DNA of 64,000 bases, from assembly GCA_037925075.1 (NCBI GenBank), contig JAXSNR010000002.1, forward strand, positions 384,001 through 448,000. The letters are read 5' to 3'. Below, in pieces: positions 1 to 55,303 of the stretch. The position numbers were made by a program, and so were the translations under genes. The notes beneath the pieces were generated by a model. That model had not been told where the DNA came from. It made no database searches and saw only the letters and a program-made list of their open reading frames with translations. This DNA comes from Aquificaceae bacterium. Lineage in GTDB: Bacteria; Aquificota; Aquificia; Aquificales; Aquificaceae. Every line of letters starts with the position of its first letter. Within the stretch, counting starts at the first letter, position 1.

Positions 1-643
1 GGTCAAAGTATATCTCCGAATAGGCAAGGTCAGAAGCCACGATTATGTTATGTTCTTTTGCCCACTCTATCAGTTCCCTATAGAAGTCCTCGCTTGCGGT
101 CGCAGATGTAGGATTGTTGGGGTAATTTACCCATATTATCTTTGCTCTTTTTAGCACCTCCTTTGGGACGCTTTTGAAATCTGGTAGGAAGTGGTTTTCT
201 TCCTTAAGAGGCAGTATATAAGGCTCTCCACCCGCAAACAATGTGCCTATTTTGTACACGGGATAGGCAGGGTCTGGACACAGTACCACATCACCGGGGT
301 TTATAAAGGCTAAGGGAAAGTGGGCTATACCTTCCTTTGAGCCTATAAGGGTTATTACTTCCTTGCTTGGGTCCAATTCCACATCAAAACTTCTCCTATA
401 CCAGTCCGCTACCGCCTGCCTAAAGGAGAGCATGCCCTCGTAGGAGGGGTATCTGTGGTGCTGGGGATTTTCCACAGCTCTTTGCATAGCCTCCACTATG
501 GGCTTTGGTGTGGGAAGGTCTGGGTCTCCCACCCCAAGGTCAATAACATCCACACCTTGAGAGAGCTTTTCCCTCTTTTTCTGGTCAATCTGAGCAAAGA
601 GGTATGGTGGCAAAGCCTTTATCCTTTGGGCGTATTCAAACAT
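1..643 (-). CDS. dapL: LL-diaminopimelate aminotransferase (class I/II PLP aminotransferase), 5' part; runs off the window
   Basis: Manual translation from ATG at 643: MFEYAQRIKALPPYLFAQIDQKK...; contains NYPNNPT and DLAYSE motifs; GGAGG SD upstream. Confidence 0.85.
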   Translation of the reverse strand, partial: MFEYAQRIKALPPYLFAQIDQKKREKLSQGVDVIDLGVGDPDLPTPKPIVEAMQRAVENPQHHRYPSYEGMLSFRQAVADWYRRSFDVELDPSKEVITLIGSKEGIAHFPLAFINPGDVVLCPDPAYPVYKIGTLFAGGEPYILPLKEENHFLPDFKSVPKEVLKRAKIIWVNYPNNPTSATASEDFYRELIEWAKEHNIIVASDLAYSEIYFD

Positions 644-21944: not shown

Positions 21945-22340
21945 TCAGATTTTAAGCAAAATACTTCGCAACTCGTTAACCTCGGACTTACCTATCAGAC
22001 CTCGCTCGTGCACCTGCTTATCAACCCTTACAGGCTCAAGGGTGGAGATGATGTAATCCATTGCCTTGTAAGCCTTTGATGGGTCTCCGCAGGTGTATAC
22101 GTCAATGGTCGCAAGACCATGCTCTGGCCATGTATGGATGGAAATATGGGACTCGGCCAGAAGCACCACGCCGGTGGCACCGTGTGGCTGGAACTGATAG
22201 TAGTGAGAAGAGATTTTTGTGAGGTCTGCAACTTTGACGGCGCTCTCAAGGAGCTGACGCACATCCTCCACCCTGTCAATAAGGTCAGGGTGGACCCCAT
22301 ACAGGTCTGCTAGGATATGCAGTCCGAGGGCTTTGACCAT
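21945..22340 (-). CDS. speD: S-adenosylmethionine decarboxylase proenzyme (class 1B)
   Basis: LAESHISIHTWPE cleavage motif, DVYTCG; ATG at 22340 with AAGGAGGAG SD. Confidence 0.96.
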   Translation of the reverse strand: MVKALGLHILADLYGVHPDLIDRVEDVRQLLESAVKVADLTKISSHYYQFQPHGATGVVLLAESHISIHTWPEHGLATIDVYTCGDPSKAYKAMDYIISTLEPVRVDKQVHERGLIGKSEVNELRSILLKI

Positions 22341-22387
22341 TTGCACTCCTCCTTGTCAAGTTTTTGTAGCAGTTTAAACTGCCTCAT
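22310..22387 (-). CDS. Putative leader peptide/uORF overlapping the speD start (MRQFKLLQKLDKEECKWSKPSDCIS)
   Basis: AAAAAGGAGG SD 8 nt before ATG 22387; open for 25 codons to TAG at 22312-22310, out of frame with speD. Confidence 0.5.
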   Translation of the reverse strand: MRQFKLLQKLDKEECKWSKPSDCIS

Positions 22388-22433
22388 AGCAAAAACCTCC
22401 TTTTTAACAGAAGGCTAAATTATAATACTTTTT

Positions 22434-22892
22434 GTGAAAAAAGCAAGTGGAAAACAAAAACTCAGACCGACTTCTAACCTTGTCAAGCAGGCGGTCTTCA
22501 ACATGCTGGGAGACATAGAAGGGCTTCTCTTCTTTGACCTTTTTGCTGGAACGGGTCAGATGGGCTTGCAGGCGGAAGAAAAAGGTGCGGAGGTAATTTT
22601 TGTGGAAAAGAACCCAAAATTGGCGGAAAAAATAAGGCAAAAAGCCAGGGGTAAGGTGGTTGTGGAAGATGTCCTCAAGTTTTTAGAAAAGGCGGAGGCT
22701 CATGCGGACATAATTTTCGCAGACCCACCATATGCCTATGAATTTTACGATAAACTTATTGAACTTTCCCTGAAAAACCTCAAAGAAGGGGGCATTTTTA
22801 TACTTGAACACTCCAAAAAACTGGACTTCTCCGCAGAAAGGAAGAAAATTTATGGTGATACCGCCCTGTCTATTTGGAGGAAGGAAGCATGA
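22434..22892 (+). CDS. rsmD: 16S rRNA m2G966 methyltransferase RsmD family
   Basis: LRPT, DLFAGTG, ADPPY, YGDT. Confidence 0.9.
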   Translation: MKKASGKQKLRPTSNLVKQAVFNMLGDIEGLLFFDLFAGTGQMGLQAEEKGAEVIFVEKNPKLAEKIRQKARGKVVVEDVLKFLEKAEAHADIIFADPPYAYEFYDKLIELSLKNLKEGGIFILEHSKKLDFSAERKKIYGDTALSIWRKEA

Positions 22893-23465: not shown

Positions 23466-25871
23466 ATGGAACCAAACAAAACATCAAAGCTTCAAAAGAT
23501 ATTTTCATCATCAGAAGTAAAACACGGTCTTTCCTTATTTTCGCAAGAAGAGTTAGATTTTGTTGAAAATCTGATAATTGAAGAAGAAGATAAACTCTTT
23601 ATCAAGTGCCAAATCAAAGATAAACGCAAACCTGCAAAACCCGAGGAAATAGTAAGACAGTTATTTATCTACAGGATGATATCAGAGTATAACTATCCTA
23701 AAGAACGAATTGATGTTGAAAGAGTTATCTATTTTGGCTCAAGAGATTCTGGACTTGCTGACATTGTCATAATGCATGAAGACATGAAACATCCATATAT
23801 CATTTTTGAAGTTAAGAGACCTAAAAGAAGCGATGGCTTAGAGCAATTAAAAAGTTATTGTAATGCTGAAGGCGCATCCATCGGTGTTTGGTCAAATGGA
23901 AATGAAATGATAAGACTTCATCGAGAAGAACCAAACATCTTTATTGAAATACCAAGAATCCCGAAAGCTAACGAAACATTAAAAGATGTTCTAACGGAAC
24001 GCTGGAATATAAGATGGTTAGAAGAAAATGATGAATTAAAGAAAGGTAAAACAACACTTAAAAAGATTCTTCTTGACTTAGAAGAATTAGTTTTAGGAAA
24101 CGCGGGAGTAGATCCATTTGAAGAAATTTTCAAACTTATCTATGCAAAACTTTATGATGAATGGAGAGGTATTAATGAATCCTCTTATCAACTCAATTTT
24201 TTTGTAGGCGACAGAAGCCCAGAACAAGTAAAAAGAGCGATTGAAAACTTGCTTGAAGGTGCTAAAAGGCAATGGCGGGGCGTTTTTGAACCAACAGATA
24301 GAATTGAACTAAGGGACGAACATCTTAAAGTTTGTGTTTCATTTCTTGAAAAAATAAAATTATTCAATTCTAACCTTCAAATAATTGATGAAGCATTTGA
24401 GTATCTAGTACCGCAAGTATCAAAGAAAAAGGAAGGACAGTTTTTCACACCAAGACCTGTTGTTGATATGATAGTAAAAATGCTTAACCCAAAGTATGAC
24501 GAGGCAATAATTGACCCTGCCTGTGGATCTTGTGGTTTTACTCTTCACTCTATACTTTGGGTTGCCGGTGGAAAACTAACTGCTAACGGTTTACCAGAAA
24601 GAGCCAGAGATTTTGCACAAAACAGAGTTTTTGGTATAGATTTTGCCAAAAAAGCCGTAAAAATCGCAAAGGCAATAAATTTAATTGCTGGAGATGGTAA
24701 AGCTCATGTTTACAAAGCAAATTCACTAGCACCTTTCATCTGGGATGATGAAACTAAAGGAGGATTAAGAGGAAGATTACTACAATTTAAAGACCCAGCA
24801 AAAAATAGAGAGAATGAGGAAAGTTTTACTTATTTTGATTTTGATGTTTTAATGACAAATCCGCCATTTGCTGGAACAGTAAAAGAAAAGGGAATATTAA
24901 GACTTTACAAATTAGCGGAAAAAGGTGGCAGGCTTGTAAATAAAATTGATAGACACATTCTATTTTTAGAAAGGTGTTTACAATTTATACGCCCGGGCGG
25001 AAGAATGGCAATAATTTTACCACAAGGTATATTTAACAATACCAATGCTGAATATATCCGTAGATTCATTATGGAGGAAGCAAGAATTTTAGCTGTTGTT
25101 GGTTTGCATGTAAATACATTTAAACCACATACAGGAACAAAAACAAGCGTTCTTTTCTTACAGAAATATACTGATGAGGAAAAAGAAAAAATTCAGCAAA
25201 TCAAAGCCAAATACGAAAGCAAGTTTGACGAATATTTCTCTGAACTTCAGAACAACTACGGTGATTACAACTGGGATAGTGATGTAGATGAAGAAAACCT
25301 ACCTGAAGAACTTAGAGCATTTTTAGAAAGTTATTTTACTTCAGTTGAGGAAATTGAAGAAATAGAAAATGAAACTGAGGAAATAGAAGAAAATGAAGTT
25401 GGAAAGAAAACTTCACTTAAAGAATTAGTTGATGAATATAAAGAGATTGTTGATATCCTTAATGAAAGAAAGGCTGAACTAAAAAAAGCAAATACTCAAA
25501 GAATAAGTGAAATAAAAAAAGAGATAAACACACTAAATAAAAAGGCAAAAAAGCTCCATCGTGAAATTTCAGAAAGAACTTTAGGTGGGCAGATTTGGTT
25601 AGTTTTGAATGATGATAAAATCAAAGAAGAGTTTAAGAAATTCTGGATTGATGGAAATGTGATAAAAGAAATGGATTATCCTATTTTTATGGCTGTTAAC
25701 AAAAAACCTGTCAAAGACAACAGCGGGGAGTATAGATATAAGAAAAATCCCGATGGCTCTTTTGTTTTGGACGAACACGGACACCCAGTAATTGATCATG
25801 ATTTAGACGAAATCGCAGAAGCTTTTATTAAATTTGCTAAAGAACAAGATGTTTATTTTTGGAGAGAATAA
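23466..25871 (+). CDS. Fused restriction endonuclease/N6-adenine methyltransferase (HsdR-N-like nuclease plus HsdM-like; type IIG/IIB-like)
   Basis: N-terminal PEEIVRQ...ADIV...IFEVK (PD-(D/E)xK-like); GQFFTPR, DPACGSCGF (motif I), NPPF (motif IV); AT-rich. Confidence 0.85.
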   Translation: MEPNKTSKLQKIFSSSEVKHGLSLFSQEELDFVENLIIEEEDKLFIKCQIKDKRKPAKPEEIVRQLFIYRMISEYNYPKERIDVERVIYFGSRDSGLADIVIMHEDMKHPYIIFEVKRPKRSDGLEQLKSYCNAEGASIGVWSNGNEMIRLHREEPNIFIEIPRIPKANETLKDVLTERWNIRWLEENDELKKGKTTLKKILLDLEELVLGNAGVDPFEEIFKLIYAKLYDEWRGINESSYQLNFFVGDRSPEQVKRAIENLLEGAKRQWRGVFEPTDRIELRDEHLKVCVSFLEKIKLFNSNLQIIDEAFEYLVPQVSKKKEGQFFTPRPVVDMIVKMLNPKYDEAIIDPACGSCGFTLHSILWVAGGKLTANGLPERARDFAQNRVFGIDFAKKAVKIAKAINLIAGDGKAHVYKANSLAPFIWDDETKGGLRGRLLQFKDPAKNRENEESFTYFDFDVLMTNPPFAGTVKEKGILRLYKLAEKGGRLVNKIDRHILFLERCLQFIRPGGRMAIILPQGIFNNTNAEYIRRFIMEEARILAVVGLHVNTFKPHTGTKTSVLFLQKYTDEEKEKIQQIKAKYESKFDEYFSELQNNYGDYNWDSDVDEENLPEELRAFLESYFTSVEEIEEIENETEEIEENEVGKKTSLKELVDEYKEIVDILNERKAELKKANTQRISEIKKEINTLNKKAKKLHREISERTLGGQIWLVLNDDKIKEEFKKFWIDGNVIKEMDYPIFMAVNKKPVKDNSGEYRYKKNPDGSFVLDEHGHPVIDHDLDEIAEAFIKFAKEQDVYFWRE

Positions 25872-25874
25872 AAA

Positions 25875-27242
25875 ATGGCTGTAATAAACATTATAAAATT
25901 ATCTGAACTTGAAGGAGCAAAGAGGATAGATGCCGAGTACTACCAACCAGAGTATTTGGAAGTAAAAAATAAGCTCTTGAAGACTAACGCCACTTATTTT
26001 AAAAATTTGGTAAGGGAAATAATACATCCTAAAGAGATTAAAAGGGAGTATGAGGAAGAAGAAAAAGATTACTTATTTTTACTTGCTCAAAATGTGAGAC
26101 CTTTAATGCTTGATTTATCTGAGAGAAAATACATAAGTTCTAAAACTGCACTTTCTTTACAAAAAAATTTATTGGAAATAGGAGATCTTCTTTTTGTTAG
26201 AACAGGTGCCATTGGTGATGTGACGGCATACACAGGTAAACCCAGAAATGTCGTAGCTTCTTCTCATATTCTAATTGCTAAGCCAAATTTTAGAACATCT
26301 CCTTTTTACTTAGCAGTATTTTTTAATACAAAGCTTGGCAAAAAAATAATAATTAGGGGGAATTATGGAGCTGTGCAACCCGAAATTTCACCAGAGCATG
26401 TTAAAACAATTCCGGTGCCGATATTAAATCAAGACCTAATAGAGTGCGTAGAGAAAAAATTTCTTCAAGCCCAAGAGTTATCTGAACAAAGTCAATCTCT
26501 CTACTCTCAAGCTGAATCCCTCCTTTTATCTGAATTAGGATTACAAGACTTTAAACCAGAAGACAGATTATTTTACAAAGTTAGTTTCTCAAAAGCAAGC
26601 ACAGTTCATAGAATTGATGCAGAATATTTTAAGCCAAAATATGAGGAAATTTTTGATTTCATTAAATGTCCCATTAAAAGATTAGGAGAAATAACAAAGT
26701 TTCTTAATCATGCAAAACAACCACCTTATGTTGAGAATGGGGAAATCCCAATAATTACTCAAAAACACCTAGGGAAAGCATTTCTAAATTTAGATTTTAT
26801 AAAAGATTCTGAAACAAAATTTACAAGTGAAGAATGGTTAAATAAGAATCTAGATTACAGATTAAGAATAGGCGATGTTTTATATTATTCAGTGGGAGCA
26901 TATATTGGAAAAACAAATATTGTTTTAGATGAGATTAAAGCAACAGCTGCAAGCTTTATCACTATTATTAGACCTACTGATGAAGTTAACTCAGCTTATT
27001 TAACTGTTGTTCTCAATAGTATTGTTGGTCAATTACAATCTGAAAAATGGCAATCAGCAACCGCACAGCAATATATTTATCCAAAAGATATTAAAAACTT
27101 TATAATCCCCATTCTTCCCAAATCTATCCAACAAGAAATCGCCAATCTTGTTCAAAAATCCCACGAAGCAAGAAGAAAAGCGGAACAACTTTTGGAAGAA
27201 GCAAAAAAGATGGTTGAAGATGCTATTGAAAAACAAGGATAA
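25875..27242 (+). CDS. Restriction-modification specificity (S) subunit with two TRDs
   Basis: Repeated RIDAEY motif and two TRD-plus-helix units (IPVP / IIPIL..QQEI); AT-rich. Confidence 0.85.
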   Translation: MAVINIIKLSELEGAKRIDAEYYQPEYLEVKNKLLKTNATYFKNLVREIIHPKEIKREYEEEEKDYLFLLAQNVRPLMLDLSERKYISSKTALSLQKNLLEIGDLLFVRTGAIGDVTAYTGKPRNVVASSHILIAKPNFRTSPFYLAVFFNTKLGKKIIIRGNYGAVQPEISPEHVKTIPVPILNQDLIECVEKKFLQAQELSEQSQSLYSQAESLLLSELGLQDFKPEDRLFYKVSFSKASTVHRIDAEYFKPKYEEIFDFIKCPIKRLGEITKFLNHAKQPPYVENGEIPIITQKHLGKAFLNLDFIKDSETKFTSEEWLNKNLDYRLRIGDVLYYSVGAYIGKTNIVLDEIKATAASFITIIRPTDEVNSAYLTVVLNSIVGQLQSEKWQSATAQQYIYPKDIKNFIIPILPKSIQQEIANLVQKSHEARRKAEQLLEEAKKMVEDAIEKQG

Positions 27243-54176: not shown

Positions 54177-55244
54177 TCAAGTGGTAGAACCTTCCTCATC
54201 AAGGTAGAAAACGTCATCGGATATGGGCTCGTTCCACCTTTTGAAGCCGGGCAGTGCTTCTATCCTGTACCATGCGGACCTGTACCAAACTCCGTTGGGG
54301 TGCCTTCTCACTGGGGCAACCTCCGCAGCCTTTGTCTCTGAGTGATAATCCCAAGTTATGTACGCGTTAAAGTCTTGAACTATGTCCGTTATGGCTACGC
54401 CAAATTCTGTGGTTAGGGATATCTGAAAGTCTCTCCAGCGAAAGACAGAAGAATCCCTAAGGGTAAGGCCAAAGTAGCCTACGCCTCCGTCTTCTCTTAA
54501 AGTGGCTATACCTCTACCTATAAAGGCTCTAAAGGCAGGTAAGGTCTCTGGTGGGTCCGAGACAAACACATCGTAATGACCCAGTATCTCCTGCGGGAAA
54601 GGGTTCCTAAGATCCCACACCTTAGCCTCTGCGTTGTCTATGCCAAGCTCCTTGAATATTCCGTTGTCAAAGTCAATAAGCCTTTTGTCTATGTCTATCA
54701 CAAGCACGCTACGGGCTTTTCTTGAAAGGGCTACCGCCAGGCCCGTAAGGTCATCCTCCGCACCAAGAACGAGAACATCCTTGTTTCTTAGGTCTCCCCT
54801 TGAGTCCATAAAAAGAACCCTTGTCACAGTGGTCTCTGGTGTAACGGAACCCTGATCATAGTCCCTTATGGCTTTGGGTCTGTCCTTTGTGATTTGAAGA
54901 AACTCTCTGTAAAACTCTATGTCCGCATAAAAGGGAATGCCTCTACCTTCGCACGCCTGACAGGTATAATCCACATAGGGCTCTATGCCCAGTTCTCTTA
55001 CAAGGTCAAAGCCCTTTTGCGTTAGCCTTATATTTTCTTCATCATCTATAAAGGCTATCCCTCTCTCCACAAGCGTGTTCACTATACCAGAGGCGGCAGG
55101 TACGGGAAGGTCTGACATATCCACTATTTCCCAAAAGTCTCCACTTTTAAGAAGTGCGGACAGCACACGCTCTATGTTCTTTTTATAGACCCTAACACCG
55201 CCTAATTCCCTTGCTCTATTGGCAAGTTCAACGAGGATGTTCAA
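54177..55244 (-). CDS. bpsA: Branched-chain polyamine synthase (N4-bis(aminopropyl)spermidine synthase, DUF43)
   Basis: CQACEGRG, YDQG, EDDLT, DIDKRL, DPPET. Confidence 0.85.
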   Translation of the reverse strand: MNILVELANRARELGGVRVYKKNIERVLSALLKSGDFWEIVDMSDLPVPAASGIVNTLVERGIAFIDDEENIRLTQKGFDLVRELGIEPYVDYTCQACEGRGIPFYADIEFYREFLQITKDRPKAIRDYDQGSVTPETTVTRVLFMDSRGDLRNKDVLVLGAEDDLTGLAVALSRKARSVLVIDIDKRLIDFDNGIFKELGIDNAEAKVWDLRNPFPQEILGHYDVFVSDPPETLPAFRAFIGRGIATLREDGGVGYFGLTLRDSSVFRWRDFQISLTTEFGVAITDIVQDFNAYITWDYHSETKAAEVAPVRRHPNGVWYRSAWYRIEALPGFKRWNEPISDDVFYLDEEGSTT

Positions 55245-55303
55245 TACACCACCTCCAATCTAAGAGTTAAGCTATATAATTATAGCACAATTAGGAGGCT
55301 TTT

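Follow-up and report, generated by a model that had tools for sequence, protein, structure and literature searches.

Control of S-adenosylmethionine decarboxylase (AdoMetDC) by upstream open reading frames (uORFs) is a textbook mechanism of eukaryotes. The AdoMetDC uORFs of mammals and plants are described as causing polyamine-dependent ribosome stalling at their own stop codon (PMC2811004; PMC7038982). The mammalian AMD1 uORF, MAGDIS, has six codons and blocks scanning from far upstream, and its stalling is abolished by the substitution I5L (PMC2811004; PMC7038982). Termination arrest that is sequence-dependent and polyamine-responsive is also reported for the plant AtAMD1 S-uORF and for the AZIN1-type uCC (PMC2811004; PMC7038982), and the vertebrate spermine synthase and SSAT genes have uORFs, known from prediction only, that overlap the 5' end of a polyamine-pathway coding sequence out of frame and act on scanning (PMC2811004). 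In bacteria, PepNL arrests at its stop codon in E. coli (PMC11890864), and SpeFL, which senses the substrate ornithine, arrests at UAG and turns speF on by Rho antitermination across a 257-nt spacer (10.1101/604074). Bacterial cis-control of speD and speE with end-product repression is described for the spermidine riboswitch, a SAM-I variant (PMC10853860). In the open literature, we found neither a description of a bacterial speD leader uORF nor a bacterial counterpart, for speD, of AdoMetDC uORF control.

The locus described here lies in a 64,000-nt stretch of an Aquificaceae genome (the window, by which this whole stretch is always meant), and comprises the following features:

21945..22340, minus strand: speD, class 1B S-adenosylmethionine decarboxylase proenzyme, 131 aa (TIGR03330, PDB 2iii)
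22340, minus strand: ATG start of speD
22348..22354, minus strand: speD Shine-Dalgarno (SD) sequence AAGGAGG (core GGAGG at 22352-22348), 7 nt from the AUG and read across by the uORF
22310..22387, minus strand: uORF of 25 codons (proposed name speDL), in the -1 frame relative to speD
22387, minus strand: ATG start of the uORF (uAUG)
22396..22405, minus strand: SD of the uORF (uSD), AAAAAGGAGG, 8 nt before ATG 22387
22310..22312, minus strand: amber stop of the uORF, UAG followed by C, at speD +29..31
22369..22382, minus strand: inner hairpin GCAGT-TTAA-ACTGC directly after the uAUG, a genus-level feature
22396-22390 with 22366-22360, minus strand: the two paired sides of an outer stem
22326..22330, minus strand: CCCUC, speD +11..+15 (Pro-Ser of the uORF), which can pair with the speD SD
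22304..22325, minus strand: weak hairpin, speD +16..+37, with the end of the uORF UAG in its 3' side
22441..22446, minus strand: -35-like hexamer TTGCTT, within codons 3-5 of the divergent rsmD
22419..22424, minus strand: -10 box TATAAT, 16 nt from the -35-like hexamer
22434..22892, plus strand: divergent rsmD-like gene with a GTG start (TIGR00095, 77 bits, below the cut-off)
54177..55244, minus strand: bpsA, branched-chain polyamine synthase (PF01861, 328 bits, E 2.6e-98)

All elements upstream of speD that a preliminary description had listed were found on the minus strand where it had placed them, and its naming of BpsA is borne out by the Pfam match above. The SpeD protein scores 138.5 bits against TIGR03330 (cut-off 75.65), has PDB 2iii as its best solved relative (E 3e-67) and contains the self-cleavage motif of class 1B AdoMetDC; it is the single match within this genome, and its protein cluster has Aquificaceae as its named members. 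Arginine or ornithine decarboxylase activity can occur among SpeD homologues, according to a paper whose main text contains no Aquificota term (PMC10407285), and these alternative activities apply as a caveat to the identification of the present SpeD, by sequence, as AdoMetDC. Downstream of speD lies arsB, in convergent orientation. The genome also encodes speE (a spermidine-synthase-family protein) and bpsA, the product of which uses decarboxylated S-adenosylmethionine (dcSAM) (PMC12979288).

The uORF extends 31 nt into the speD coding sequence and its product ends W-S-K-P-S-D-C-I-S-stop. This peptide is absent from the protein collection searched and matches no family in Pfam. Of 766 genes called crudely in this genome with free DNA upstream, 8 are preceded by a layout in which an SD and AUG open an overlapping out-of-frame ORF, several of these eight cases being genuine upstream genes or miscalls. 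Because no 16S anti-SD could be located for this genome, SD strength is judged by the canonical GGAGG. Elsewhere in the window (23466-27242), we observed a type I-like methyltransferase and specificity-subunit pair, as read from the ORFs, in which a GGAGG-led out-of-frame ATG ORF overlaps the called start of the first gene; this is possibly a miscalled start or a phase-variable 5' end.

SpeD matches were obtained in 168 of 178 genomes of the phylum and in 139 of the 148 genomes in the order of the window. We analysed 134 loci from 132 genomes, 96 of them in a first set and 38 held out; seven matches stayed outside the locus set (six partial or weak, plus G127). An intact uORF, that is, an AUG in the -1 frame open to UAG at speD +29..31, is present at 132 of the 134 loci, and any ATG open to the stop at 95/96 first-set and 37/38 held-out loci. 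Leader length takes 13 values between 29 and 119 nt, every one of them 2 mod 3, and the uORFs have 19-49 codons. When the first ATG after an upstream GGAGG was taken whatever its frame, such a pair was found at 88/96 loci with a spacing of 5-10 nt, and all 88 picks were at 2 mod 3; at the remaining eight loci, the contig ends or the SD is absent or weaker. The same frame-blind rule applied to the held-out loci gave 34 picks in frame, three loci without a match and one pick out of frame (L293), where the first of two adjacent ATGs was taken and the second is in frame. Stops in the uORF frame occur in none of 80 unique leaders, as against 41 and 74 leaders for the other two frames, and shuffles lead one to expect 34/80 leaders to be open by chance. 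Ahead of the speD SD, the fraction of single-base changes that are synonymous is 0.47 in the uORF frame vs 0.20 and 0.18 in the others. The uORF stop is TAG at 95/96 first-set and 38/38 held-out loci, and the GGAGG of the speD SD is invariant, with 7-nt spacing, at 88/88 loci counted.

There are two exceptions. In L281, speD itself carries an internal stop. In L074, the upstream ATG is in another frame, the TAG is lost and codons 6, 7 and 10 are relaxed, so that this one lineage lost AUG frame, stop and third-base freeze (see below) together. Kin loci are not independent, and tree-based counts accordingly weigh more than raw fractions. The upstream SD, AUG and frame, on which the preliminary description had rested its proposal of leader-peptide control, prove to be conserved in relatives, and on these sequence comparisons the uORF is almost certainly a conserved, selected cis-regulatory element.

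The third bases of speD codons are the second bases of uORF codons, and in the overlap they hardly change. On a tree made from codons 12-117 of 96 sequences, and with the expectation derived from the same amino acids downstream, speD codons 4-10 underwent nine third-base changes vs about 185 expected; three of the nine fall on L074. No downstream seven-codon window approaches this freeze (0/99), which ends at codon 11 (21 changes), i.e., at the uORF stop. Codons 4, 5, 7 and 10 have first bases that serve the uORF as wobble positions, and these changed 11, 1, 4 and 23 times (39 in total). Within one predicted loop, position +27, where a change alters the uORF Ser, changed twice and its silent neighbour +28 changed 23 times. 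The His8 codon is CAT at 88/96 loci, although CAC makes up 68% downstream, and the Gly6 codon is GGA at 95/96, although GGT, the codon used most often for Gly, would here extend the hairpin by one pair. The uORF Trp is invariant, being forced by ATG-G, and residue 2 of SpeD is Ala, Glu or Val, with Val always encoded by GTC, which leaves the uORF open. A general 5'-end effect as the cause of the freeze was ruled out by glnA, in which codons 4-10 gave 0.43 vs 0.42 (a control of one gene and 30 loci in three close genera), whereas speD gave 0.018 vs 0.43.

The uORFs end in PSDCIS* at 118 of 134 loci, and otherwise in PSDSIL* (seven), PSDCTL* (six) or PSDCTS* (two), with one locus lacking the stop. 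Frame, stop position and C-terminal codons are all constrained, which upholds the earlier view that the uORF is a selected reading frame; the constrained C-terminus inside speD goes beyond what had been observed in the preliminary description. The locus shares two traits with arrest peptides: a short upstream ORF with its own start and a conserved frame (132/134; 88/88), and a concentration of amino-acid constraint at the C-terminus. Bias extends past the uORF stop, where Ala11 is encoded by GCC at 0/96 loci vs 26% downstream and Asp12 by GAC at 94/96 vs 61% downstream; given this constraint beyond the stop and the conservation of CCCUC, part of the freeze is probably RNA-level. The freeze of codons 4-10 would partly reflect constraint on the C-terminal peptide of the uORF, confounded in part by RNA pairing.

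Like MAGDIS, speDL is a short uORF on an AdoMetDC mRNA with constraint in its last residues, and it ends Ile-Ser-stop with an Asp nearby; unlike MAGDIS, it is bacterial and SD-led, has 19-49 codons and ends within the coding sequence, and no homology is claimed. The Ile-Ser-stop likeness may be due to chance, and it is low in information because the His-Ile-Leu of SpeD allows few endings and three lineages end otherwise. Pro-Ser near the end is shared with the AtAMD1 S-uORF, where it is terminal, whereas four more residues follow in speDL; unlike the plant AdoMetDC uORFs, speDL overlaps the main ORF and has no tiny uORF. In its out-of-frame overlap with the 5' end of a polyamine-pathway gene it resembles the spermine synthase and SSAT uORFs. 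Unlike SpeFL, speDL overlaps its target, has no spacer and no Phe-rich effector domain, and has a predicted OFF effect; membership in the SpeFL family proper (34-aa, Phe-rich, with a rut-site spacer) was rejected, as there is no Pfam match and peptide, target and layout all differ. The spermidine riboswitch is a structured aptamer, whereas the conserved feature of speDL is a reading frame. speDL likely works like the eukaryotic AdoMetDC uORFs, and belongs neither to SpeFL nor to an Rfam family.

The reading that we prefer, and to which we give about an even chance, is that the uORF acts as a feedback brake: abundant polyamines would slow release at the UAG, and the ribosomes held there would cover the speD start. 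The uORF would be translated from an mRNA starting near 22412. Its C-terminus, W-x-K/R-P-S-D-C-I-S, would make termination slow and sensitive to spermidine, or to a longer or branched polyamine, helped by the UAG-C stop context and perhaps also by the weak hairpin at the stop. With its A site at the UAG, a ribosome would cover about +12 to +45 of speD and block initiation there, and a second one queued behind it would occupy the speD SD and AUG. At low polyamine, quick release would leave an unfolded initiation region, de novo initiation on speD or re-initiation a few tens of nucleotides back would follow, and AdoMetDC and dcSAM would rise. Against this reading speak the bias past the uORF stop, for which a peptide offers no explanation, and the variation of the last uORF residues from lineage to lineage.

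More tentatively, as a possibility in which we have limited confidence, the uORF peptide may be a bacterial nascent-peptide sensor of polyamine end products that is arrested inside its own target gene, with a logic and an Ile-Ser-stop convergent on MAGDIS, with thermophile branched polyamines as the possible ligand, and with sensing residues double-coded in the first beta-strand of SpeD. Polyamine-dependent stalling, if real, would offer a short bacterial system for toeprinting and cryo-EM; it would address the open question of how polyamines act on the terminating ribosome, and might reveal whether cells read branched polyamines as signals. The first ten codons of a gene can conceal a regulatory ORF in their synonymous sites, and the synonymous-site freeze is a signature that can be searched for genome-wide.

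Sensing at uORF initiation instead of termination, with the C-terminal constraint then largely RNA-level, is an unlikely alternative to the polyamine-slowed termination that we favor. Polyamines would alter weak hairpins at the uSD and uAUG, or favor a long SD spacing or a UUG start, and the larger number of ribosomes then crossing the speD start would damp speD. In E. coli, polyamine-modulon mRNAs are described as acting via distant SDs, UUG or GUG starts and bulged stems (PMC7177335), and an initiation component has been proposed for MAGDIS too (PMC2811004); here, the uSD spacing is 9-10 nt at 45/88 loci, and four of 17 loci in family f5 retain the uORF with a UUG start. Hairpins directly after the uAUG occur in the genus of the window (g1; mean local z of the inner-hairpin region -1.95) and in family f2, where a GGGC/GCCC hairpin is present at 20/20 loci (mean z -1.83). 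However, no structure is common across genera, since g2, g9 and f3 have no consistent post-uAUG hairpin (mean z near or above 0), and initiation leaves unexplained both the frozen +24 and +27 beside the free +28 and the fixed stop position. The 3' side of the uSD pairs with the A-rich tract before the speD SD in g1, g9 and g4 among the genera listed.

The preliminary description had also proposed a long leader hairpin enclosing the uAUG. Both of its stems exist in the window, where the inner one by itself reaches a local z of -2.8; but only the window's genus has the exact stems (inner at 11/96 loci, all in g1; outer at 10/96), and the fold of the entire leader does not outperform shuffles (z -0.55; z -0.1), so that we rejected the hairpin as the conserved core. 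In the minimal window leader, this fold has -13.1 kcal/mol at 37 C and -2.8 at 70 C.

An activating coupling is rather more doubtful. The speD SD would be shut by pairing with CCUC, in a stem stacked on the +16..37 hairpin, and ribosomes on the uORF would melt the stem and re-initiate 31 nt back; the uORF would then set speD output with little or no ligand sensing. The RNAalifold consensus is exactly this stem of the SD with CCUC (+12..15) next to the stop hairpin; four pairs of the former are intact at 95/96 loci and six pairs of the latter (+16..37) at 78/96, and the bias at codons 11 and 12, past the uORF stop, runs in the direction that the hairpin predicts. A peptide-only reading is opposed by this bias and by family f5, where most uORFs are gone and the freeze is weak (0.30 vs 0.41) but CCCUC persists and remains over-conserved (ACC 13/17, CTC 16/17, GGC 14/17). 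Against the coupling, the pairs of the two stems are invariant or changed on one side across the 96 loci, with no two-sided compensatory change; their stability is about 0 kcal/mol at 65-70 C (for the +16..37 hairpin, on average -4.7 at 37 C and 0 at 70 C); a U at +33 breaks the hairpin at 13/96 and 18/38 loci (31/134); and f4 keeps uORF and stop without CCCUC. The coupling also has no need of a conserved peptide, and any reading in terms of RNA only is opposed by the loop, in which +24 and +27 are frozen and +28 is free to change, and by +18, which stays A although U would pair.

The same stalling with SAM, dcSAM or methylthioadenosine as the effector in place of a polyamine appears improbable: SpeD commits SAM, and SAM-induced nascent-peptide stalling is described for plant CGS1 (PMC7038982), but the AdoMetDC uORFs tested and the speD-linked SAM-I variant riboswitch are reported to sense spermidine (PMC7038982; PMC10853860). 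Least of all would we expect the released peptide to act in trans as a small antizyme-like inhibitor or partner of SpeD, which mild purifying selection on the N-terminal part and its amphipathic look in f1 would suit, whereas the N-terminal halves range from about 5 to 35 codons and bear no relation to one another in f1, f2, g5 and f3, conserved residues cluster at the stop in the manner of arrest peptides, and an overlap at a fixed position would be unnecessary.

Other decoding routes were rejected. A riboswitch (spermidine or SAM aptamer) has no match to any Rfam model, the scan of the leader region giving three chance matches (E 3.3-9.7), none of them bacterial. Frameshifting into speD is opposed by a stop that closes the speD frame 15-17 nt upstream in the window, and inspection revealed no slippery site that is conserved. 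The SD and start of speD itself, both invariant, also speak against antizyme-type frameshifting, in which a main ORF without its own start is entered through a +1 shift at the final uORF codon; to pass from the uORF into speD, a ribosome would have to shift by -1 or +2 and would leave out conserved residues at the N-terminus. Readthrough past the UAG would find the -1 frame open for 93 codons in the window, which is not conserved: the frame stays open for 5-29 codons in 94 of the other 95 loci, and for 123 in one.

The transcription start is predicted at about 22412. Of the speD promoter reported in the preliminary description, the sequence at 22446-22419 is present, but the promoter scanner did not list TTGCTT-16-TATAAT, and TTGCTT matches a -35 element at only 3/6 positions. 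Most family-f1 loci have a TTG-led hexamer at the same spacing as the window -35, and a lenient search found a -10-like box upstream of the uSD at 95/96 loci. Two contigs from RNA libraries of related strains (X1 RNA; X13 RNA by guess) cover the uAUG and speD and end near 22400-22405; the contigs give neither start nor strand, and their ends, near the predicted start, are a weak hint of support for it. In the RNA runs, all shares were < 0.1, and the main text of an Aquifex dRNA-seq paper does not mention speD (PMC4227106).

The -10 box was seen to be a palindrome, ATTATAAT (window 22419-22436), with a plus-strand TATAAT (22421-22426) 7 nt before the rsmD GTG. The same 7-nt spacing between TATAAT and ATG or GTG recurs at 37/96 loci (genera g1, g4, g6, g7, g9 and g10), and the palindromic box is likely a single bidirectional promoter that gives rise to a leaderless rsmD-coaD mRNA. 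At bpsA (window 55244-55300), a TTG start and a strong SD are preceded by a short leader after a TATAAT box, and neither an upstream SD nor a uORF was seen there by eye.

Beyond the families discussed above, both f4 genomes have an AUG-led uORF that ends at +31 in HWESTL*. The f5 loci that retain the uORF have the ending LSASTL*, and elsewhere in f5 a short LSVI* ORF occurs, or an upstream SD without a start; named Thermovibrio and Desulfurobacteriaceae records have f5-type leaders. Among 120 speD-like loci from the matches listed, mostly from other phyla, none has an SD-led -1 uORF ending at +31, this being a pattern-selected sample that requires a Cys that Aquificales lack, and not a census; the single -1 candidate in it (L112) was rejected as a protein without a start at that place. 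By its distribution, the element looks ancestral to the class and lineage-restricted.

Several lineage variants were observed in addition. Three SpeD paralogues of f2 have a single SD, with no second SD or leader. Second SpeD-family paralogues (L236-L240), with a TTG start and leaderless in f2 and divergent in f5, are candidates for arginine or ornithine decarboxylases or pseudoenzymes. In the f2 loci L091-L110 and L292-L316, uORF codons 2-7 contain GGGC-N7..10-GCCC, with a loop that varies in steps of three, and the hairpin encodes MG-x-x-SP. In genus g5 (L067-L069 and L287-L290), the leader measures 95-119 nt and the uORF is long, conserved along part of its N-terminal region and ending in PSDSIL*. 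Six f5-type loci (L079, L085, L089, L232, L317 and L207) combine an upstream SD with LSVI*, a -1-frame ORF of four codons that starts at UUG and ends about 20 nt short of speD; it may represent a leader that has been truncated or rewired. Six further loci (L081, L084, L086, L140, L187 and L199) have an upstream SD without a start codon, together with a G-rich/C-rich hairpin that holds a purine tract in its loop. In Methylomirabilis-like loci (L116, L129 and L191), a second upstream SD-like tract precedes a TTG-started speD.
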